Source of the DNA: Escherichia phage ES19
Sequence record: MN508616.2
Length of the DNA stretch: 64,000 nucleotides
Direction: 5' to 3' (one strand)
In this document: piece by piece, positions 1-44,384 of the stretch
Layout: the number at the start of each line of letters is the position of its first letter
Numbering within the stretch: position 1 is the stretch's first letter
Program-made: the position numbers and the translations under genes
The notes under the pieces: generated by a model
Seen by the model: the letters and a program-made list of their open reading frames with translations, nothing else
What the model was told of the DNA's origin: nothing
The model's database searches: none

Positions 1-1041
1 TTACTATCAATAGCACCTAACTGATAAGCACGTTTAATAGCATCTCGGAATGGTTGATGCTTAAATAAAGGACCCCAGAATGTAGTGCAGTTAGTATCTT
101 TTGCACGCCAAGATTTTTCTTCGCGAATCATCTCGCCGGTTTCTTCGTCAAGAAATTCACGAGCATACCAACCATTCTTAGGTTTTACTACAAATCCTAA
201 TTCTAGAGCCATATCTAACAATCCAGAATAAGGATCGATACCACCGTCAAATTTAACATCAATAAAGAATTTACTTTTTTCTTTAACGGTACGAGATTTT
301 TCTATATTTAGAACAAATTGATACCCCTGAAGATCAGAACCATCTTTAATCTGGCGCTTACCGATAATGAATACAGTATCAGCCGAATACATTACGCCTG
401 TACCACCTGTCATCACGGTTTTACTAAACATTTCAATTGTTTCAATTGTATGGTTAACCGCAACACATGGAATGTTTTTAATACTAAAATAAGGAGTAAC
501 AATACGGAATAATGACTTCAGTGATTTAGCACGAGTCATATCTGCCACAGATTTTTCATTCAAGGCATCTTCCGTTTCTTTCTTAGAAGCCATATTACCA
601 ATTGAGTCGATGAATACAATAACTTTTTCACCGCGCTCAATAGCTTCAAGCTGATTCACCATATCAATTTTCAGCTGTTCAACTGACTGAATTGGTGTAT
701 GAATTACTCGTTCCGGGTCAACTCCCATGGATCGCAAATAAGCTGGAGTAATACCAAATTCGCTATCATAGAATAGACATACCGCGTCAGGATATTTGTT
801 CAAATACGCCGCAACCATAGTCAAAGACATATTTGATTTAAAGTGTTTAGAAGGACCTGCAAAAATGGTTAAACCAGACTGCATACCACCATCAATCGCA
901 CCAGAAATAGCGATATTAAGCATTGGGATTTTTGTACGGATTACATCCTTTTCATTAAAGAATTTAGATGTAGTCAGTTCAGCAGTCATTTTAGAAGTGG
1001 AAGCTTTAATCAAACGGGATTTTAAATCTGCAATAGACATT
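1..1041 (-). CDS. uvsX: UvsX RecA-like recombinase, C-terminal end cut by window edge
   Basis: Minus-strand translation from ATG at 1041 gives MSIADLKSRLIKAST...GPSKHFKSN (P-loop)...FIDVKFDGGIDPYSGLLDMALELGF; frame stays open to position 1. Confidence 0.9.
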
Positions 1042-1117
1042 CATTTTTTCCATAGGCATCATTATATTTTCCTCACTGGTTAAAGATAGAGTAATTATAA
1101 CACAATAAATTTAGGCA

Positions 1118-1966
1118 TTAATCAACTGCTATTGGATGAATAGCATTAAACTTATGAAATGCTTCTGATTTTTCTTTACGTGAAACGCACATGCGAAGAA
1201 CCTTTAATGGCTCGTCTTCTTCACCCAACGATTTTCGTTTTTCAATATTAGAAGTTTTCCAACGAGCTTGCTCTGGAAACTCTCTATTGATTTGCTCAAG
1301 CGCTCTATTATGTTTAGAATTACTACGAATTGAACTGCACCCGCCAGGAGCTTGTGCTTTTCCAGATACAACCAGATATTTGAACAAGGCCAAATGCGGA
1401 TAACCTTGATTAATTAAATTGAGAAATGCATACATATCTTCGCATAAATCAATTTTTCCATACCCAATTTGTTCTGTCGTAAGTTTTCCAAGGTCATACC
1501 ATGTATTCGTGAATCCATATGAATTTTCACGATAATTACCCCAAGATGAAGTAATTTTAAAAATTGGTAGACGAGCATGGCCATGATAATATCCGCAATC
1601 CATGGCATCCTCAACATATTGAATCAATTCATAGAACTGTTCACGAGTTAATTGATTAATTTTATCTACACATCGGCGATCATCTCTTTTTCGCATTGAA
1701 CTCATACGAATAGTAGTATCATCGTCAATCATCCAGATTCGTTGACCTGCATACATATCAGTAATTGCTTTACGAGTACCGGCAATTCCGTTTACATCAT
1801 CAGGAATAGTTATAATTTTAGCTCTAGACCCATAGGCATCATAATAAGCTTTTTCTTCGTGTTCACGCACTACAATATGGGGTTCATAATCAGTCGGAAA
1901 CATATCAAGGGCAGAAACTGCCCCTACGCGCTGATAGCTTGGAATTACGAATTGAATCATTTCCAC
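1118..1966 (-). CDS. DNA-modification glycosyltransferase at the beta-gt locus (not T4 beta-gt-like; possibly T2/T6-type beta-glucosyl-HMC-alpha-glucosyltransferase)
   Basis: 282-aa ORF between uvsX and gene 42 where T4 has the 351-aa beta-gt; sequence does not resemble T4 beta-gt as I recall it; function inferred from synteny. Confidence 0.5.
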   Translation of the reverse strand: MEMIQFVIPSYQRVGAVSALDMFPTDYEPHIVVREHEEKAYYDAYGSRAKIITIPDDVNGIAGTRKAITDMYAGQRIWMIDDDTTIRMSSMRKRDDRRCVDKINQLTREQFYELIQYVEDAMDCGYYHGHARLPIFKITSSWGNYRENSYGFTNTWYDLGKLTTEQIGYGKIDLCEDMYAFLNLINQGYPHLALFKYLVVSGKAQAPGGCSSIRSNSKHNRALEQINREFPEQARWKTSNIEKRKSLGEEDEPLKVLRMCVSRKEKSEAFHKFNAIHPIAVD

Positions 1967-2697
1967 TCACCGTTATAATCTTTTTTCGCAATATGAGTTT
2001 CGCCAGTTTTCAACCAATGATCAACCAAGTAAAAATGACGAGAATATACATGAAGACTTCCGACATTCCATATAATGGAACCTGCTTTATACTGACGAGT
2101 TGAATCACCTGCATTCAAATCAGATACTAATTTATCTAGTACGTATTTTTGCCACGCATAATCATTACGGAATCCGAAGACCACGTCATTTGAACGCATG
2201 CTTACTACTGCATTGACTTTCTTATCACGAATCAAGTACTGTACTGTATTCGTACACATGAAATCTGACATACCATCTTTACGGTAGTCAAACTGCATAG
2301 ATGGGCGAGTATAAATCATGATACCACGCCGAGAATCAGGATTTTGACCAAGTTCAAATAAACACATATCATACTGAGCATAGTTATCTTCTGACCAAAT
2401 AGCCCAACCATAATTCGAGTTAATTTCGCCTTTAGAAGATGCTACCTGCTGCCAAATCTTTGGTGTTTCACCTGGAATATCTTTAACAAACAAGCTCTTA
2501 GATTTATACCATTCAAGTTCACGCTGAATGTATTCATCATTAAGAGCGCCAAAAATAAACGGTTCATCTGCTACAAATGATGCGCCAATAATTTCAATAG
2601 TTTTAACACCAGTTTTATCAACTACGAAATCTTTTTCTTTTAATGCAAGCCCCAAATGAAGACGGATTTCTTCAACTGTCATAGAGTCACTAATCAT
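1957..2697 (-). CDS. 42: dCMP hydroxymethylase gp42
   Basis: 246-aa ORF MISDSMTVEEIRLHLGLALKEKDF...; thymidylate-synthase-like fold protein matching T4 gp42 in length and sequence. Confidence 0.9.
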   Translation of the reverse strand: MISDSMTVEEIRLHLGLALKEKDFVVDKTGVKTIEIIGASFVADEPFIFGALNDEYIQRELEWYKSKSLFVKDIPGETPKIWQQVASSKGEINSNYGWAIWSEDNYAQYDMCLFELGQNPDSRRGIMIYTRPSMQFDYRKDGMSDFMCTNTVQYLIRDKKVNAVVSMRSNDVVFGFRNDYAWQKYVLDKLVSDLNAGDSTRQYKAGSIIWNVGSLHVYSRHFYLVDHWLKTGETHIAKKDYNGEWK

Positions 2698-3737: not shown

Positions 3738-3774
3738 TTTATTCTCCAAATCCGTATCAGTAGTTGATAGTTGT

Positions 3775-3804
3775 ATAGTACCATGGAAGAACATTCTTGT
3801 AAAC
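3775..3804 (-). promoter_or_regulatory. T4-type early promoter (-35 GTTTAC, -10 TACTAT)
   Basis: Minus strand: AT-rich UP region, GTTTAC, 18-bp spacer, TACTAT, then RBS/ATG at 3737; member of a repeated promoter family. Confidence 0.6.
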
Positions 3805-3920: not shown

Positions 3921-6617
3921 TCAGCCAAACAGGAAGTCTAACGAAGCTTTTTCTTCATAGTCCATACCAGCCGATTCACACATGCCCGCAAGCGGTTTAA
4001 CAAACGATTTTTGGAACAAAGTTGAGTGGTCAATCCAAGATAGTACGTCAGAACGAATTTCTTTTGGAAGTTCTGTACCCGATGGCCAAGCAATGCACTT
4101 GTCACCAAATGGATTTCCTTCACGTAATGGAAGAACCATTACTTTATTTCCATCCAAAATTGGAGCTACACCCAGACCACTAACAGCTCGACGATAAGTT
4201 AGCACACCGCGAATATGGAACGGGCATTTAAATCCTGGCCAACCTTTATCATCATATTTCGCTATATCGTTCGCAGTTTTTACTTCAGCAATAACTTTAT
4301 AGTCGAGTTGACGATATTCTTTCTCGAAGTTCTTGTAATATTCTTGGACAGACTCTTCACCTTCCTGAAGAATACGACGAATACTTTCTTCGAGAGCTTC
4401 TTGTACTGCTTTTGGTGTTGAACTCTGCTGAGTTTCCATACCCATGATTTTTAGATGCGGTTCAGCAAATCGTTTATCTTCCATATCATAAACGTTCAGA
4501 GCATAACGCTTTTTCGCTTTCCAAAATCCACCAATACCCTTTGAACCAAGTGGAGGGCAAGAAATAGCTTCACGGTCCATATGCATCAGATGCTCGCGGT
4601 TATTCATATAATCACATAACTCACGATATGCAACATCAATCATAGGTTCCATCTTTTTCTTACCGAACTGATTCATAAATTCAACCAAATCGTTCTGCTC
4701 TTTGAATCGGTCAAGACCAACTTTTTCAATAACTTTATCTACACAAACATATACCGAATCAGTATCACCTGCTGCGATGAAATCTTCGCCATTAGTTCCA
4801 CATACTTTATTCAGATACTCATTAATTTTACGAGCAATCCACTGAATACCAACTTGGCCGAAAATTGTGATAGCAGTAGCATTTCGCAAATCATAGTAAC
4901 GGAAATGAATATTACCAAGAGCACCATAAAGACTGTTAATAAGAATTTTACGGTTCAGCTGATTTGTATTAGCAAGTGTAGCAGCTTTTTCACATTCCTC
5001 AATCAGACTATTGAGAACAGATTCAGTATAATTCGACAGTTCATTTAAGAAATCATCACTGAACTTAACATATCGTTCAACTTCTGGTTTAGTTGAACAA
5101 GACCCTGCGCCTTTCATAATAATCTTTTTAATAGCTTCGGCATTCATTTCTTCAGCGAACATTTTCTTTTTCCAGTCTTTACGCTGGAAAAATACTTTAG
5201 CGATTTCCTTTGGAATGATACCTTCTTGATGCTTATCATACATCCATCCATTCGGAGAACAAGAATATTCATCACTCGGTTTAGGAGCTGTTCCTGCAAT
5301 ATATTCATGAATTGGATGAACTTTAAACTGACCACGAATAGTCTCAGGACTAATGTTAACCTGACGAATAATGCTCGGATACAGAGACGTCAAGTCAAAA
5401 CTCATAATATATCGACGAGCAATTGGTTTAGGTTCAAATACGAATGCACCCGGAAAACTCTGTTTAACGTGCGAACCCTGTTGAGGAATAACCTTATGTT
5501 CACCTTTCAATGAGTTAAAAATAATAGCATCCCAAGTTTTAATAGGACTCATTACACCAGAAAAAGGCATTTTAGCATAATAAGACATACTTAAAACTAG
5601 ATCGATAAACCCGCGAATTTTATCAATTGCTTGAACTGATTCTACGTCAATGATGTTATAACTAATGTATCGTTGATGATTAGTCTCACGAAGTTTATTA
5701 ATAGGACCATCATACGGTAATTTACCTTTTTTGGTTTCATGTTGAGCAACTGATTCCAAAGAGAATGACGGCAAATTAGTAAAAGCGAATTTCTTGTACA
5801 AATCTAAATAATCAAGAATAGATACGCCATCAATAGAATAAATTTCTTTGCTACCGTACATATTTTGAATTAGTTTAGATTTTACTCGACCGATTGGAGA
5901 GAAGCGTTTCATACTACGTTCACCGAGAACCATTTTAACACGATTCATGATATACGGAACGTCAAATCCCTCAATATTCCAACCAGTAAAAATAGCAGGT
6001 CGTTTCTGTTCCCAGAGATTGATATATTCCATGAGCATATCACGCTCATTATCAAATGGCATATAAATTACTCGGTCAAGAATTTCTTGAGGAACTTCAT
6101 CACCACCTTCACAGTCAAGCTTAGCAGCTAACTTTGCATCCCATTTTGATACTGAACCGTACATTGAATTCAAAAGGTCGAAAACATAAAAACGATCATC
6201 AATTGAATCATAATGAGTGATAGCATCAATTTCATATTCAGCTTTCATTGGATCAGGAAATTTATCACCAGTAACCTCAATGTCACAGTTAGCTACACGA
6301 ACAAATTTTCGGTCATAAACAATTTCTGAACCATACGTATCACTGATATAAGCGAGTTTAAAATCGTTCATACCGAGAGCTTCGAGACCGATGTCTTCCA
6401 TTCGCTTCATCCAATCTCGAGCATCTTTCATTGATGGAAATTTTTGAGGAGCGCAATTTTTACCATAGATGTCTTTGTACTTTGACTCTTCCTTACAATG
6501 CCTAAACATAGTCGGAAGATATTCTACTTCACGAGTACGTTCCTTTCCGTTTTCATCAATATAACGTTCAACAATGTTATTTCCGACTGTTTCGATAGAG
6601 ATATAAAATTCTTTCAT
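3921..6617 (-). CDS. 43: DNA polymerase gp43 (family B, with 3'-5' exonuclease)
   Basis: 898-aa ORF MKEFYISIETVGNNIVERYIDENGKER...; polymerase motif IAAGDTDSVY; length equals T4 gp43. Confidence 0.95.
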   Translation of the reverse strand: MKEFYISIETVGNNIVERYIDENGKERTREVEYLPTMFRHCKEESKYKDIYGKNCAPQKFPSMKDARDWMKRMEDIGLEALGMNDFKLAYISDTYGSEIVYDRKFVRVANCDIEVTGDKFPDPMKAEYEIDAITHYDSIDDRFYVFDLLNSMYGSVSKWDAKLAAKLDCEGGDEVPQEILDRVIYMPFDNERDMLMEYINLWEQKRPAIFTGWNIEGFDVPYIMNRVKMVLGERSMKRFSPIGRVKSKLIQNMYGSKEIYSIDGVSILDYLDLYKKFAFTNLPSFSLESVAQHETKKGKLPYDGPINKLRETNHQRYISYNIIDVESVQAIDKIRGFIDLVLSMSYYAKMPFSGVMSPIKTWDAIIFNSLKGEHKVIPQQGSHVKQSFPGAFVFEPKPIARRYIMSFDLTSLYPSIIRQVNISPETIRGQFKVHPIHEYIAGTAPKPSDEYSCSPNGWMYDKHQEGIIPKEIAKVFFQRKDWKKKMFAEEMNAEAIKKIIMKGAGSCSTKPEVERYVKFSDDFLNELSNYTESVLNSLIEECEKAATLANTNQLNRKILINSLYGALGNIHFRYYDLRNATAITIFGQVGIQWIARKINEYLNKVCGTNGEDFIAAGDTDSVYVCVDKVIEKVGLDRFKEQNDLVEFMNQFGKKKMEPMIDVAYRELCDYMNNREHLMHMDREAISCPPLGSKGIGGFWKAKKRYALNVYDMEDKRFAEPHLKIMGMETQQSSTPKAVQEALEESIRRILQEGEESVQEYYKNFEKEYRQLDYKVIAEVKTANDIAKYDDKGWPGFKCPFHIRGVLTYRRAVSGLGVAPILDGNKVMVLPLREGNPFGDKCIAWPSGTELPKEIRSDVLSWIDHSTLFQKSFVKPLAGMCESAGMDYEEKASLDFLFG

Positions 6618-28793: not shown

Positions 28794-28820
28794 TTTTGTT
28801 CCTCCGTAGTTGATAGTTGT

Positions 28821-28850
28821 ATAGTACCACAGAGGAATGGTCTTGTAAAC
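28821..28850 (-). promoter_or_regulatory. T4-type early promoter (-35 GTTTAC, -10 TACTAT)
   Basis: Same repeat family as 3775..3804; minus-strand GTTTACAAGACCATTCCTCTGTGGTACTAT. Confidence 0.55.
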
Positions 28851-28852
28851 CA

Positions 28853-29155
28853 CTAAAAGAAACTTCTTTCACAATTTTTTCCACTGAACCAAGCGCTCAC
28901 TGCTTTCTTAGTCTCAGGAGCAGTGTTATCCATAAACCATTCAAAAGCAGCCTTTTTATGATTCTGGAGGGCTTCTCGGGCTTTAATCTGCTCACGGTCT
29001 ATTAACACTAACATATGAGCCTTTCTTGTCACCAAGGGCTTCTTATGATTCTTGGAGTATTCCCAGTCATTTGTCCAACGCATTGTCGTTGCGAACTGAT
29101 GAACCGCGTCTTTAATTTTAGTTTCGTAAATTTCACGAGCCTTTGAGTATAACAT
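28853..29155 (-). CDS. hypothetical protein
   Basis: Start at MLYSKAREIY behind GGAGGTAGTG; 100 aa. Confidence 0.4.
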   Translation of the reverse strand: MLYSKAREIYETKIKDAVHQFATTMRWTNDWEYSKNHKKPLVTRKAHMLVLIDREQIKAREALQNHKKAAFEWFMDNTAPETKKAVSAWFSGKNCERSFF

Positions 29156-29256
29156 CACTACCTCCATTTACCAGTTTAATTCTAATCATCTTTTTGATGG
29201 CAGTCCATATAATCTATTTCTGAACTGCCTTTTTGTCATAGAAGGCCTCTTATGAA

Positions 29257-30225
29257 TTATTTCAGAAGAGTAACCTCAGCGATTTCTTCCCAACCGTTTT
29301 TGTCGGTCATAATAAAGTCAGCAAGATAAAGTGCAGTACGCAGTGAAACATTGCGTAAACGATTAACATTGACTTTCATCCATGATAATGCTTTATAAGT
29401 TTCTTCATCAGAAAGACCGCGTTTTTGCATCATGTCAGTTGAAAGAATAACATCTTCAACCCTGACCATAATTTCTTCATTAGTGTGAACACCCAAATCT
29501 AAATAAACCGAGCGGGAAACTAATGCTTGTAAATGTGGAGCAAGTTTAGTACCACGGTCTAATTCGCGGTCAATGTCAACGTTTGTGATAAAAACAATCG
29601 TTCCTTTAAATTCAAACTCACGCTCAATGCCTTTTTCTTCTAAGTAAGAAGATGCAGTGCTCCAGCAGACTTTGCGGGTCTCTCCGGTGTCCAGAGCAGC
29701 TTTCAGAAGATTAAGAATGTCCATATCAGAGAAAACATCCACATCATCAATCAAAAGTACAGAATTCTCTTCACGATTATTCCAAAGCTGCTCATAAAGA
29801 CCAATACCAGAGATTTTACCATTAATGCTTTTATATTCAATGTATCCAATATCATTTGCTTTATTTAAAGCTTTATCTAAAGAATACGTTTTACCAATAC
29901 CCGCCGCACCAGAGATAATTAATGAACGAATGTTTCCGTTAATAATACCATTCGTCATCATTCCCATAACATTAAATCTTTTATTAATGCGGGTTTTCAT
30001 ATCTTCATACGATTCTTTAACTTCTTCAACTTTTACACCATCATATGAAATGTCTGATTTGTAAACCCAAACACCGCGACGCTTACCGTCAATTTCAACA
30101 AAAACTTTACCATCTCCTTGTGCATCTACCGGAGCATTATCTGGGAACCATTCACCTAAGAGCTCAAAAGTTCCAGAGATTTCTTTACCGAAGTAGATAC
30201 CCTTATTGATAGTTACAGTTTTCAT
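29257..30225 (-). CDS. P-loop NTPase (AAA-like ATPase) of unknown function
   Basis: Walker A GAAGIGKTY, Walker B VLLIDDVDVF; start at MKTVTINKG behind GGAGAATAAA and an early promoter. Confidence 0.55.
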   Translation of the reverse strand: MKTVTINKGIYFGKEISGTFELLGEWFPDNAPVDAQGDGKVFVEIDGKRRGVWVYKSDISYDGVKVEEVKESYEDMKTRINKRFNVMGMMTNGIINGNIRSLIISGAAGIGKTYSLDKALNKANDIGYIEYKSINGKISGIGLYEQLWNNREENSVLLIDDVDVFSDMDILNLLKAALDTGETRKVCWSTASSYLEEKGIEREFEFKGTIVFITNVDIDRELDRGTKLAPHLQALVSRSVYLDLGVHTNEEIMVRVEDVILSTDMMQKRGLSDEETYKALSWMKVNVNRLRNVSLRTALYLADFIMTDKNGWEEIAEVTLLK

Positions 30226-30259
30226 TTTATTCTCCAAATCCGTATCAGTTGATAGTTGT

Positions 30260-30289
30260 ATAGTACCATAAAGCTTTATGTTTGTAAAC
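30260..30289 (-). promoter_or_regulatory. T4-type early promoter (-35 GTTTAC, -10 TACTAT)
   Basis: Minus strand GTTTACAAACATAAAGCTTTATGGTACTAT upstream of the ATPase gene. Confidence 0.55.
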
Positions 30290-30312
30290 CGTTTTGTGAA
30301 AAATTTTTGAAA

Positions 30313-30340
30313 TAAAAAAAAAGGGAGCCCGAAGGCTCCC
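30313..30340 (-). terminator. intrinsic terminator (UUCG hairpin plus U-run)
   Basis: Minus strand GGGAGCC-UUCG-GGCTCCC followed by TTTTTTTTT, directly after the nucleotidyltransferase-like gene. Confidence 0.6.
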
Positions 30341-30342
30341 TA

Positions 30343-31356
30343 TCATTTATAATAACTTCGGTGGTTTTCAAGATAGACCTTCTCAAGGAAGTCATCCCAG
30401 AAACCCATGTCTACTTTTTGCTGCATACCGTTCTTAGAAGCTTCAGTAGATGCTGCTTCTACTTGATCGACCACATCTTCCAAAAACTCTTGAACAGTTT
30501 TAAATGGATGTTTACCCAACTTCACGTCGAGAATAAATGGAGCGTCTTGAAGTGGATAGACTAAGTCACCAGTTTTGTAAATTTCCAATAGTTGGAGTCC
30601 ACCACGGCAAGCATGACTCAGAGCTTTCCAGTCAATGCCCTCATTCGCTTCAGCCTTACGAGCACGTTCGCCGTATTCAGCATCAAGTTTATTCAAAGAT
30701 TGCTTAAGCTCAATAAGAGAAAGTGTTGTTTGATATTTACGACCCAACACAGTGTAGAACGTTTGTGGGCCTGTTTTCTCATGATTATGGAATACCCATT
30801 CACAGAATTCGTTCTCTGGAAGACGATGCTTAATATCTTCAACTTTAGTTCGACGCTGCTTAATGGAACCGTCTTCTTGGTAATCAACCCATTGCTCAGG
30901 GATTTGATTAACTACTTTCAATACATCACGTAATGCGGCCAAACGAGAACCCTTAACACCGTATTTAGAAGCTTGCTTGCGAACATATCCTAAATAGGAT
31001 TTCATGTTAGTCGTATAAAAACGAGAACGATTATCTTGGATAAACTTCCATACATCAGGCAAATCAGATTTAACCACTAGTTCAGGCGGAGTGTGAAGCA
31101 TATCCAATGCTACAGTTTCACCATCTGCCGCTAATTTAAAGAAATACTTAAGACTGTATAGTTCATGGTCAATATCATCTTTAGTGTTTTTAGATGATGT
31201 GTTGTTAGTGTTTTTGCTCATATGCTCTTTAACATTTCCGATAAGAATATCGCGAGCAGGAGGAACAAAAATTTCTTTAAAATCTACATCAGATTCTGGA
31301 GTAGAAGTTCCATAAAGATGACTACCAAAATAGCTTTTCATTACTGTTTTCATCAT
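30343..31356 (-). CDS. polymerase-beta-superfamily nucleotidyltransferase-like protein
   Basis: 337-aa ORF with N-terminal GSHLYGTSTPESDVDF (GS-x10-DxD nucleotidyltransferase signature) and a later DIDHE acidic motif; large C-terminal helical domain. Confidence 0.5.
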   Translation of the reverse strand: MMKTVMKSYFGSHLYGTSTPESDVDFKEIFVPPARDILIGNVKEHMSKNTNNTSSKNTKDDIDHELYSLKYFFKLAADGETVALDMLHTPPELVVKSDLPDVWKFIQDNRSRFYTTNMKSYLGYVRKQASKYGVKGSRLAALRDVLKVVNQIPEQWVDYQEDGSIKQRRTKVEDIKHRLPENEFCEWVFHNHEKTGPQTFYTVLGRKYQTTLSLIELKQSLNKLDAEYGERARKAEANEGIDWKALSHACRGGLQLLEIYKTGDLVYPLQDAPFILDVKLGKHPFKTVQEFLEDVVDQVEAASTEASKNGMQQKVDMGFWDDFLEKVYLENHRSYYK

Positions 31357-31814
31357 TCAGCCTTATATTCAATAACAGGACATACTTTAGCTTTACGCGC
31401 TTTTAAAAATTCGACGATAATAGATTTCTTGGGTTGAATAGGAGGTAAACCTTTATACGCCCTATCAATATTTTCTACATGTAAAGCATAATCCTTTTTC
31501 CATTTATAATCTTTATATTTTTCATGCAGTTGTGCAGGAATAACAAATGAACCAATAATAAGTAAAATAAGCAAAATGGCAAGTATAAATGCTGATGGAA
31601 TAAGAGTCCATAAACTACCAAAAATAAGCCATTTCTGTATGATTTCTGCGCAGATAATAGTTAGACCTGCGAGTATAGTACATCCGAAAAAAGAAACGAA
31701 AAATGTAGGGATAACAATAGACCAAAAGTATGCACACAGTGTCTTAGGTCGTTTCCATTCGTCGTTAAACAGTTTGAATAATTTATAGTGCCAAGAGTTT
31801 TCATTAATAATCAT
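31353..31814 (-). CDS. hypothetical membrane protein
   Basis: 153-aa ORF with two long hydrophobic helices; translationally coupled to the downstream NTase gene (4-nt overlap). Confidence 0.45.
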   Translation of the reverse strand: MIINENSWHYKLFKLFNDEWKRPKTLCAYFWSIVIPTFFVSFFGCTILAGLTIICAEIIQKWLIFGSLWTLIPSAFILAILLILLIIGSFVIPAQLHEKYKDYKWKKDYALHVENIDRAYKGLPPIQPKKSIIVEFLKARKAKVCPVIEYKAE

Positions 31815-31816
31815 AA

Positions 31817-32338
31817 TTATCCTTTCATTGAAGGTGTAACAGTTGTTAAATACTTAATCATAGCTTCAGCTTCTGATTTTGATAATGAAATTTCTCCATT
31901 GTTTTGACGAATAGAAATAAAATCCGGATGACGGTCACCACCAGCTTTTAAAACACACATATAAGTATCAGTTTCATCTTCAATATCTGAAATGATTGAA
32001 GCAGTTCCACATGAATGTGGTTTTTGATAAATCAATACAGCTTTTCTTCCACCGTTTGACTGTTCATAAACTTTTAACACATCAAACAAATCGCTTCTTT
32101 TATCAATAGCTAAGATGTTGTTTTCATCTTCAATATTAAATCCTTCGGATACTTCATAAAGTGTCACCCATAAATCACCAATATCAATAACAGCGTTCAC
32201 TTTTCCATGACTTTCAAGAGCATTACAAATTTTCTTAATTTCATCATAACTCATTTTAATAATATCATCTCCTTGAATAAGGAAGATGTCATTTTTAAAT
32301 TCAACACGAATTAAACCACTTCCACTTGAAATAAACAT
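31817..32338 (-). CDS. hypothetical protein, tandem paralog pair member
   Basis: 173-aa ORF; C terminus SEAEAMIKYLTTVTPSMKG parallels DEAIALKTYLDSVIPTMISK of the next ORF. Confidence 0.45.
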   Translation of the reverse strand: MFISSGSGLIRVEFKNDIFLIQGDDIIKMSYDEIKKICNALESHGKVNAVIDIGDLWVTLYEVSEGFNIEDENNILAIDKRSDLFDVLKVYEQSNGGRKAVLIYQKPHSCGTASIISDIEDETDTYMCVLKAGGDRHPDFISIRQNNGEISLSKSEAEAMIKYLTTVTPSMKG

Positions 32339-32344
32339 ATTTCC

Positions 32345-32902
32345 TCACTTTGAAATCATAGTTGGAATGACAGAATCGAGATAAGTCTTTAGCGCAATAG
32401 CTTCGTCTTTGGTAAATGTGACAATATACGATCGAAAATCATCAATTTGACGAATAGTTAAGACATCACCATCTTCATAGCATTTTGATACGTTTAAAAC
32501 AGTTTCATCATTCTGATTGCAAGCGTTAGTAATAATAGCATTGCAATTTTTGAGCCATTTTAAACTATGTTTTCTTTCATTAGAATAATAAAAATATTTA
32601 ATCTTATCTATAAAACTATCCCAATGGATAACTGATAAACACATTGACTCACTTTTAATATTAAATCCTGGGCATGAAGAATAAAAATGAATTTTGTGCT
32701 CATCATTGATGCTTACTATTTTATCAGTATAAGGATATTCAATTTGGGTTAAATGAATGATTTCACTAGGCGTAAAATATAGCATATCGTCTTCTTGTGT
32801 CAAACGATACATATTATTTACTTTTTCTATAGCTAATTCACCAAAAAGCGGACTAACTTCTAATACTAATCGTTTCATATTGATTCTCTTCGACTCACCC
32901 AC
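32345..32902 (-). CDS. hypothetical protein, tandem paralog pair member
   Basis: 185-aa ORF; shared C-terminal motif with the 31817..32338 product. Confidence 0.45.
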   Translation of the reverse strand: MGESKRINMKRLVLEVSPLFGELAIEKVNNMYRLTQEDDMLYFTPSEIIHLTQIEYPYTDKIVSINDEHKIHFYSSCPGFNIKSESMCLSVIHWDSFIDKIKYFYYSNERKHSLKWLKNCNAIITNACNQNDETVLNVSKCYEDGDVLTIRQIDDFRSYIVTFTKDEAIALKTYLDSVIPTMISK

Positions 32903-33232
32903 AATTACATACTCCTTTGAATAATATCAATAATGTTGTTCACCAGATTATAAGTAAACATTGGATAATTATATTGAATCATCACATACACAACAAACAA
33001 AACTTTCATTCTCTTCTCCTTGGCAGTTGACAAGATTACTATATCATAACCTTGCCAACTTGTAAACCATTAAATGACGTTTTCAATAAAATTCTGAAGC
33101 TTTGTGTGAGCATCAACCATGATTTTCATTTCTTCCTTTGCGAAAGCTGTACCTCTTTCCCTAGCAGAATACTCATAGTCAGAAACTGCATTAGCATATT
33201 CTTCAATTAGCTTCATTAAAAACATCTGCTTT

Positions 33233-44311: not shown

Positions 44312-44354
44312 TTCATTCTCCAAGTTGTTTTCTGTATCAGTAGTTGATAGTTGT

Positions 44355-44384
44355 ATAGTACCATGGAAGAACAGAGATGTAAAC
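44355..44384 (-). promoter_or_regulatory. T4-type early promoter (-35 GTTTAC, -10 TACTAT)
   Basis: Near-identical copy of the 3775..3804 promoter. Confidence 0.55.

Follow-up and report, generated by a model that had tools for sequence, protein, structure and literature searches.

The region at 29257..31814 of the window (the whole stretch of 64,000 nucleotides that was analysed) contains the orthologues of T4 nrdC.11 and nrdC.10 together with a small RB32-type membrane gene that is absent from T4. Its three consecutive open reading frames, all on the minus strand, were correctly recognised in the original prediction, which described them as one promoter-driven module. They are assigned here to two transcription units, with nrdC.11 encoding an RlaP-family nucleotidyltransferase (NTase) that would act in RNA repair and nrdC.10 encoding a separate AAA+ ATPase. 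Near certainty attaches to the orthology, the family assignment, the preserved active-site residues, the AAA+ fold and the division into transcription units; the explanation as a whole (two units, RNA repair by NrdC.11, a separate NrdC.10 ATPase) is considered probable, a grade that reflects the mechanism. The order on the coding strand is membrane gene, NTase, terminator (30341..30322), promoter (30288..30260) and ATPase. The features are as follows:

29257..30225, minus strand: nrdC.10 orthologue, phage-specific AAA+ ATPase, 322 aa from the ATG at 30225
29731..29760, minus strand: Walker B motif VLLIDDVDVF of the nrdC.10 orthologue
29887..29910, minus strand: Walker A motif GAAGIGKT of the nrdC.10 orthologue
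30260..30289, minus strand: T4-early-type promoter of nrdC.10 (GTTTACA, 17 nt, TG-TACTAT)
30313..30341, minus strand: intrinsic terminator of the nrdC.11 unit (stem-loop 30341..30322, then a U-run)
30343..31356, minus strand: nrdC.11 orthologue, RlaP-family (PF10127) Pol-beta nucleotidyltransferase, assigned by T4 identity, Pfam, phrog_388 and the structural model
31353..31814, minus strand: small membrane protein gene (153 aa; phrog_944 'membrane protein', E 4.6e-50)
31817..32338 and 32345..32902, minus strand: two tandem y05I/MobD.1-like genes, each with Pfam T4_y05I_N and T4_y05I_C
33038..33066, minus strand: promoter-like site (GTTTACA, 17 nt, TG-TATAGT; 10/12 matches, with TG)

The source is a T4-like coliphage. 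Phage ES21 is 100% identical across the region, and at least 80% of the region is covered in 419 phage records. The comparison with T4 nrdC.10 and nrdC.11 that had been suggested identified both genes as orthologues: the ATPase is 99% identical to T4 NrdC.10 (NP_049708, phrog_1250) across 316 aligned residues, and the NTase is 98% identical to T4 NrdC.11 (NP_049709) over 336 residues, with just six substitutions. Both T4 genes are early transcripts with protein detected, and T4 nrdC.11-mobD.3 is dispensable under laboratory conditions.

The mechanical reading frame of nrdC.10 reaches upstream of the ATG to a TTG at 30237. Its product, predicted to be a P-loop protein, is more specifically an AAA+ ATPase. 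The Walker A and Walker B motifs lie where they had been placed, and are joined by an N-terminal beta domain, a sensor-1 FITN, an SRS arginine motif and a helical lid, so that the features that mark AAA+ proteins (Walker A/B, sensor 1, arginine finger, alpha/beta base plus helical lid) are all present. NrdC.10 is probably oligomeric. Comparison with specific AAA+ clades (clamp loader/RFC, DnaA/ORC, MoxR, sigma-54 activators) gave no clearly best match, a sequence search of solved structures gave no meaningful match, and no specific structural relative was found. Cellular homologues amounted to seven matches in a genome set of 185,579 species, every one of them from a MAG or phage-like contig. 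The AAA+ family of NrdC.10 is widespread and restricted to phages, and the protein is separate from the NrdC.11 transferase rather than its dedicated partner.

That NrdC.10 is an accessory factor (loader or remodeller) of phage DNA replication or recombination, unrelated to the transferase, is possible but doubtful. Consistent with such a role are the AAA+ fold with its SRS motif, which we take to resemble the 'SRC' arginine-finger box of RFC/RarA, weak PHROG matches to clamp loaders, and the UvsY-like and RecA/UvsX-like genes that also occur close to NrdC.10 homologues. Of 80 viral loci, 52 have a UvsW-like helicase gene roughly 2 kb downstream on the strand of the ATPase gene. But T-even phages lack this arrangement, which is essentially limited to a single clade of related contigs, and it was discarded as a functional clue. 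A DNA-binding domain, moreover, was not identified in NrdC.10.

The nrdC.11 orthologue comprises 337 aa from the first ATG (31356) or 336 aa from the T4-annotated start (31353). It had been predicted to be a Pol-beta-type NTase with a large C-terminal helical domain, and the profile and structure-prediction checks agree with this, the C-terminal region being mainly helical. The GS/DxD motif GSHLYGTSTPESDVDF is encoded at 31279..31326, as predicted, and the third carboxylate, D62, at 31168..31170. None of the residues G10, S11, D22, D24 and D62 varies among 40 homologues (34-56% identity), and the protein thus has the G-S motif and the three conserved acidic residues of the Pol-beta core. Residues 7-135 match Pfam RlaP (PF10127) with 44.2 bits (gathering score 23), the same family is carried by 120 of 120 close homologues among the matches listed, and phrog_388 'nucleotidyltransferase' is matched with E 8e-137. 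The predicted structure (pLDDT 92.7) has an NTase domain that includes the D62 strand, helical regions, a long terminal helix (316-335) and an extra predicted beta insertion (154-208). A fold search with the model returned Pol-beta-fold NTases from the PDB, all weak globally (TM 0.2-0.37, E >1e-3), the best being kanamycin nucleotidyltransferase, the Hailong defence enzyme HalB and an MNT antitoxin; these weak matches reflect the shared Pol-beta core. Sequence searches of solved structures with NrdC.11 and with a 40-sequence NrdC.11 profile gave no meaningful match. NrdC.11 exceeds the RlaP model (249 positions) by about 90 residues and has its C-terminal half outside the Pfam match; because of this length and the beta insertion its substrate choice may differ.

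On balance, NrdC.11 is taken to act on RNA in a repair role, a reading favoured by a modest margin of belief and drawn by analogy from the biochemistry of bacterial RlaPs and from published predictions. Two bacterial RlaPs add one or two NMPs to the 3'-OH of RNA and none to DNA or protein; cleaved-tRNA mimics are preferred, and aminoacylation is partly regained for tRNA missing one nucleotide (10.64898/2025.12.29.696909). This NMP addition, with Mn2+ preferred, is known solely from the two Pseudomonas enzymes PfRlaP and PaRlaP. An RNA-repair role of phage RlaPs was predicted earlier (PMC7824862). By the proposed mechanism, NrdC.11 would add one or two NMPs, independently of a template, to the 3'-OH of broken RNA; the substrate would be a tRNA from which a RloC-type anticodon nuclease has removed a nucleotide, and sealing of the extended tRNA by the phage Pnkp and Rnl1 could then restore a functional molecule. 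Rnl1 is a 5'-phosphate ligase, of the class that requires a 3'-OH end as left by RlaP. The ES21 genome encodes both Rnl1 (99% identity) and Pnkp (93% identity), about 83 kb away. Of 78 viral RlaP loci, 77 showed no Rnl1 or Pnkp homologue within 6 kb, and Rnl1 was present in the remaining one. The family was named after gene adjacency to RNA ligase; its absence here does not count against the membership of NrdC.11, since this adjacency holds for some RlaPs only.

A different target of the NTase is unlikely, whether a nucleotide or oligonucleotide signal or decoy, a protein AMPylated in the manner of MNT, or a small molecule modified as by aminoglycoside nucleotidyltransferases. Such targets are suggested by the three best structural matches, HalB being an oligodeoxyadenylate maker, by the divergence of the phage cluster from the assayed bacterial RlaPs (the beta subdomain and the C-terminal half beyond the Pfam model), and by the missing RNA ligase in the neighbourhood. 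Against them stand the global weakness of those structural matches, the placement in PF10127 by sequence above threshold, the action of both assayed RlaPs on RNA alone, and the absence of any Pfam or NCBIfam match to CD-NTase models or to models of other defence or signalling proteins. The nucleotide signalling that the original prediction considered is not indicated by anything found, and the family evidence points instead to RNA 3'-end repair. Its suggestion of counter-defence survives solely as the undoing of host tRNA nucleases; a PADLOC search for defence families gave no match for any of the three proteins.

The terminator and the promoter-like site are both present where they had been predicted. 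The terminator hairpin (30341..30322) has 8 bp, 6 of them G-C, closed by a UUCG loop and followed by 9 U; folded in context it has -16.8 kcal/mol (z = -3.46). The site at 30288..30260 is sigma-70-like, with TTTACA, 17 nt, TACTAT and an extended TG. A promoter scan alone performs at chance level (31 sites against 27.6 expected) and gives this site no support; it is credible because it is conserved, because its core is repeated and because the T4 orthologues are early. Terminator and promoter are both kept in T4 and in L096, a relative of 76% identity whose terminator stem carries compensatory changes, and the 23-nt promoter core has four copies in the window against none expected. As both elements are located after nrdC.11 and ahead of nrdC.10, transcription from this promoter can reach only nrdC.10 and the genes after it. 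The claim that the promoter lies upstream of all three genes and is shared by them was therefore mistaken, as the first two genes precede it. The first unit would start at an early-type promoter at about 33066 and run through a mobD.2-like ORF, the two y05I-like genes, the membrane gene and nrdC.11 to the terminator; the site at 33066..33038 is probably its start. The second would start at the early-type promoter at 30288 and comprise nrdC.10 and the downstream genes.

The first of the three genes does encode a membrane protein, as predicted: in addition to the phrog_944 match, it has two long hydrophobic stretches at residues about 25-60 and 62-98. It corresponds to RB32 ORF096c and is labelled RB32ORF096c in LR746311, where the tandem y05I-like genes, predicted to share the transcription unit of the membrane gene and nrdC.11, are labelled RB32ORF097c and mobD.1. 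In T4, mobD occupies its position. The predicted 4-nt overlap of the membrane stop with the NTase start (ATGA) holds with the first ATG at 31356; it shrinks to 1 nt (TGATG) if translation begins at 31353, the start annotated in T4.

The three genes lack the single upstream promoter and the freedom from internal terminators of an operon, and their neighbourhoods vary among phages. The spacing between them varies between 0 and 2.3 kb, with unrelated ORFs lying in the gaps, and in other phages ORFs are inserted exactly between the NTase and the ATPase, at the terminator/promoter site. An RlaP gene was found within 6 kb in 3 of 80 ATPase-anchored viral loci (77 without), and an ATPase nearby in 37 of 78 RlaP-anchored viral loci (41 without). 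The two are not neighbours outside T-even and Acinetobacter-type phages, and on one contig they lie about 40 kb apart. The order membrane-NTase-ATPase is seen in 36 of the 78 RlaP-anchored loci, which makes some cooperation conceivable, although these loci are related, collinear genomes and not independent observations. NadR/Nudix-like and NAMPT-like genes, recognised by eye only, lie near NrdC.11 in distant phages (10-13 loci) and were set aside as lineage synteny; these neighbourhoods showed no ligase gene.

One functional system of membrane component, transferase and ATPase, for example in host takeover or counter-defence, is very improbable: a membrane homologue in the same order at 36 of the 37 RlaP loci that have an ATPase, abutting membrane and NTase ORFs in 13 loci, a stop/start overlap suggestive of translational coupling and the early transcription of both T4 orthologues speak for it, but the co-occurring loci are not independent, the conserved terminator and promoter set the ATPase apart, the gaps vary, each partner is frequently missing near the other, PADLOC recognises none of the three proteins, and T4 keeps nrdC.10 and nrdC.11 without the membrane gene. 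The three-gene module is given up on the same grounds. It would be still more surprising if the T-even RlaP, with its extra beta subdomain, were a specialised third T4 tRNA-repair enzyme beside Pnkp and Rnl1, restoring the RloC-excised wobble nucleotide with the membrane protein and the AAA+ ATPase, which co-occur with it in a constant order, assisting or regulating it; if true, the block would be a counter-defence unit that had so far been overlooked in the best-studied of all phages.

With genes 98-99% identical to catalogued T4 genes, the finding is an ordinary one. The domain assignments of both T4 genes were published in 2006 (PMC1524935), and a 2025 preprint (10.64898/2025.12.29.696909) has already described the RlaP family and counted T4 NrdC.11 among its members. 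The experimental question, an idea proposed by others, is whether T4 NrdC.11 extends the classic Pnkp/Rnl1 tRNA repair to nucleases that remove nucleotides. The NrdC.10 family is a reasonable, unremarkable target for study.

Among the known systems, the bacterial enzymes PfRlaP and PaRlaP share with NrdC.11 the GS and three-aspartate Pol-beta core and, judged from the predicted model of NrdC.11, probably the sequence of NTase domain, helical domain and terminal helix. In the crystal structure of PfRlaP, the N-terminal NTase is followed by a C-terminal helical domain, and the terminal helix packs onto the NTase domain. NrdC.11 is longer and has the predicted beta insertion, and T4 NrdC.11 was assigned to similarity cluster 5 of PF10127 whereas the two Pseudomonas enzymes belong to cluster 1a (10.64898/2025.12.29.696909). 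Bacterial RlaP genes lie within RtcB-RtcA operons; the phage gene has no ligase neighbour. Compared with T4, the promoter, the Shine-Dalgarno sequence and the start context of nrdC.10 are all the same, and the last few C-terminal residues of its product differ from the T4 reference, the ending EVTLLK in the window being that of most homologues. The nrdC.11 gene keeps its Pfam family and its position relative to nrdC.10, but the upstream place that the homing endonuclease mobD takes in T4 is filled here by the membrane gene together with an additional y05I paralogue. The terminator/promoter pair belongs to the PeSL (promoter-early stem-loop) type of cassette, which is known to mediate gene shuffling in T4-type phages and to be a hot spot of recombination in their hyperplastic regions (PMC4122927, PMC2839356). 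For the nrdC.11/nrdC.10 copy, recombination is deduced from genome comparison. As in PeSL cassettes, a terminator hairpin directly precedes an early-type promoter within a hyperplastic region, the promoter core recurs elsewhere in the window, and the indels of relatives fall at the cassette.

Over 29000..32400 the sequence shows 100% identity to Escherichia phage ES21 and matches 700 T4-like phage records, with coverage of at least 80% in 419 of them. The genes, already known from T4, are all encoded on the minus strand. The transferase shares 98% identity with T4 NrdC.11 and the ATPase 99% with T4 NrdC.10, which settles the orthology that the original prediction had left as a question; the motifs that it quoted were found in their places.

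Genes and signals of the region, in the direction of transcription
32902..32345, minus strand, first y05I/MobD.1-like gene (Pfam T4_y05I_N and T4_y05I_C)
32338..31817, minus strand, second y05I/MobD.1-like gene, in tandem with the first (Pfam T4_y05I_N and T4_y05I_C)
31814..31353, minus strand, membrane ORF, 153 aa
31356 or 31353..30343, minus strand, nucleotidyltransferase ORF, 336/337 aa
30341..30322 plus U-run, minus strand, hairpin terminator
30288..30260, minus strand, promoter-like site
between promoter-like site and ATPase ORF, minus strand, Shine-Dalgarno GGAG
30225..29257, minus strand, ATPase ORF, 322 aa (the mechanical ORF call starts at TTG, 30237)

The membrane ORF corresponds to RB32 ORF096c (phrog_944); its predicted membrane character is borne out by two hydrophobic segments (roughly residues 25-60 and 62-98), and its stop/start overlap with the transferase ORF is real. 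T4 has a single y05I/MobD.1 copy, the second copy and the membrane ORF being replaced by the HNH homing endonuclease mobD. Pfam describes the family of the two paralogues as 'putative transcription factor'. In GenBank, many NrdC.10/NrdC.11 homologues are labelled 'thioredoxin' and many small mobD.x ORFs 'molybdopterin-guanine dinucleotide biosynthesis protein MobD'; these labels look like errors that have spread from T4 nomenclature (nrdC.x, mobD.x).

The original prediction placed the membrane, transferase and ATPase genes under one shared early promoter. Both signals that it named are genuine. A promoter scan gave 31 sites against 27.6 expected by chance and on its own therefore carries no weight. 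The site at 30288..30260 fits the T4-early pattern (GTTTACA, 17-nt spacer, TG-extended -10), is kept both in T4 and in a relative at 76% identity, and has a 23-nt core present in four copies in the window against 0 expected. These copies (ATGGTACTATACAACTATCAAC-like, at most one mismatch) lie at 3763..3785, 28809..28831, 30248..30270 and 44343..44365, all on the minus strand; they are probably dispersed promoter copies of the PeSL type (promoter-early stem-loop, a terminator hairpin followed by an early promoter), and could act as recombination sites. The terminator consists of an 8-bp stem with 6 G-C pairs, capped by a UUCG loop and followed by 9 U; it folds in context at -16.8 kcal/mol (z = -3.46), and in the more distant relative just mentioned its stem is preserved by compensatory changes (GGGAGCC...GGCTCCC to AAAGGCC...GGCCTTT). 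The layout was misread: terminator and then promoter both lie between the transferase and ATPase genes, 3' of the first two genes, so the promoter cannot serve the membrane and transferase genes. The unit that includes these two most likely starts at a promoter-like site at 33066..33038 (10/12 matches, with TG). The finding is real but ordinary, and its interpretation as an operon is wrong.

The ATPase is a known orphan. It passes no Pfam or NCBIfam model; its family, phrog_1250, occurs widely among T4-like viral contigs, at identities as low as ~30%, and is nearly absent from cellular genomes (7 matches in 185,579 species, all in MAG or phage-like contigs). The 27 aligned homologues (54-79% identity) have in common Walker A, Walker B (DD), sensor 1 (FITN), an SRS motif in which R238 is invariant, and the conserved segment LRNVSLRT. 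In the model (pLDDT 89.7) a beta domain of ~60 residues at the N-terminus is combined with an AAA+ base and a helical lid. The alignment to the T4 NrdC.10 reference ends at residue 316/325 (29257..29275 encodes the C-terminus) and the ending found here (…EVTLLK) is the form common to most homologues; the end of the T4 reference is therefore variant or frameshifted. T4 nrdC.10 is classed as early for both RNA and protein (PMC9697503 supplement). In one large, possibly aquatic, clade of T4-like viral contigs, to which the arrangement is essentially restricted, the NrdC.10 homologue lies immediately 5' of a UvsW-like helicase gene on the same strand (52/80 loci by clustering; contigs L012-L083, e.g. 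L018 5947..8898), with UvsY-like, RecA/UvsX-like and nrdB genes nearby.

Among 80 ATPase-anchored viral loci, an RlaP gene lies within 6 kb in only the 3 closest, and a profile search gives the same. The ATPase is downstream in 37 of 78 RlaP-anchored loci (gaps of 0-2.3 kb), 36 of which also have the membrane homologue upstream. Loci with both genes are T-even-like, a few being judged Acinetobacter-type from named protein hits; one contig (L007 and L142) carries both genes ~40 kb apart. Two phages each have a pair of small ORFs inserted in the gap from nrdC.11 to nrdC.10.

Inserts between nrdC.11 and nrdC.10
4227..4819, Shigella phage vB_SsoM_113 (L002)
4351..4835, phage BW-1 (L003)

The vB_SsoM_113 insert starts directly after the shared promoter, Shine-Dalgarno and first codons ('MKT', as in nrdC.10); after it comes a second promoter with the same Shine-Dalgarno and start. 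The BW-1 record labels its inserted ORFs 'RNA polymerase ADP-ribosylase'. The vB_SsoM_113 pattern is what has been described for PeSL cassettes, through which modules are shuffled in the hyperplastic regions of T4-type phages (PMC4122927; PMC2839356). Some weak cooperation between the genes is possible; we conclude that the shared gene order reflects synteny inherited by neighbouring, separate modules and is not evidence for one system.

The family and predicted role of the transferase are already published. A COG3541 nucleotidyltransferase domain in nrdC.11 and an AAA motif in nrdC.10 were reported in 2006 in a T4-like genome comparison (PMC1524935). The protein matches Pfam RlaP (PF10127) over residues 7-135 with 44.2 bits (curated threshold 23), and an exhaustive search (E up to 1e-3) gave 3,416 homologous cluster representatives. 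In an alignment of 40 of these (34-56% identity) G10, S11, D22, D24 and D62 are invariant, as are R230, K243, H247 and R250 in the C-terminal region. The AlphaFold model is confident (pLDDT 92.7) and is built of an NTase domain and helical regions, with a beta insertion and, at the end, a long helix. Its PDB matches, weak globally, are all Pol-beta-fold nucleotidyltransferases (the uncharacterised NTase-like protein 3c18, kanamycin NTase, Hailong HalB and MNT), in agreement with the predicted fold. The insertion (residues 154-208; 30730..30894) is a small predicted beta-sheet between helical parts, poorly conserved among homologues and outside the Pfam match; it may be a module that the phage cluster alone uses to recognise its substrate. 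T4 nrdC.11 is classed as early by RNA and middle by protein (PMC9697503 supplement), and the block nrdC.11-mobD.3 was lost from genome-reduced T4 with viability kept (PMC9825161).

The suggested link to nucleotide signalling or a known defence or anti-defence family was not favoured by any search (Pfam, NCBIfam, PADLOC). By analogy, NrdC.11 would be a repair enzyme for tRNA cut and trimmed by an anticodon nuclease. After cleavage and loss of a nucleotide, the ends would be healed by T4-type Pnkp, the nucleotide restored to the 3'-OH by NrdC.11 and the break sealed by Rnl1. An earlier jumbo-phage comparison predicted that phage RlaPs, acting ahead of ligation, put back the nucleotides that RloC-type nucleases take out (PMC7824862). 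5'-phosphate ligases such as Rnl1 need a 3'-OH end, so the end-compatibility problem raised for RtcB (10.64898/2025.12.29.696909) would be absent here. Genes for Rnl1 (99% identity to T4) and Pnkp (93%) are present in the ES21 genome, ~83 kb from the nrdC.11/nrdC.10 locus. Ligase genes are not neighbours of RlaP genes, Rnl1 lying within 6 kb in only 1 of 78 viral RlaP loci. In that locus (L151) an Rnl1-type homologue (970..2166, E 6.6e-37) is found within ~3 kb upstream of the RlaP gene (5319..6308), on the same strand. Two Pseudomonas RlaPs, characterised in a December 2025 preprint, add 1 or 2 NMPs to the 3'-OH ends of RNA, whereas DNA and protein receive none. They show a preference for Mn2+ and, in a cleaved-tRNA mimic, for the 5' half, and allow tRNA lacking one anticodon-loop nucleotide to regain aminoacylation in part; the preprint places T4 NrdC.11 in the family (cluster 5) and gives its function as unknown (10.64898/2025.12.29.696909). 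Compared with these bacterial enzymes, the proteins of the phage RlaP cluster are divergent and longer.
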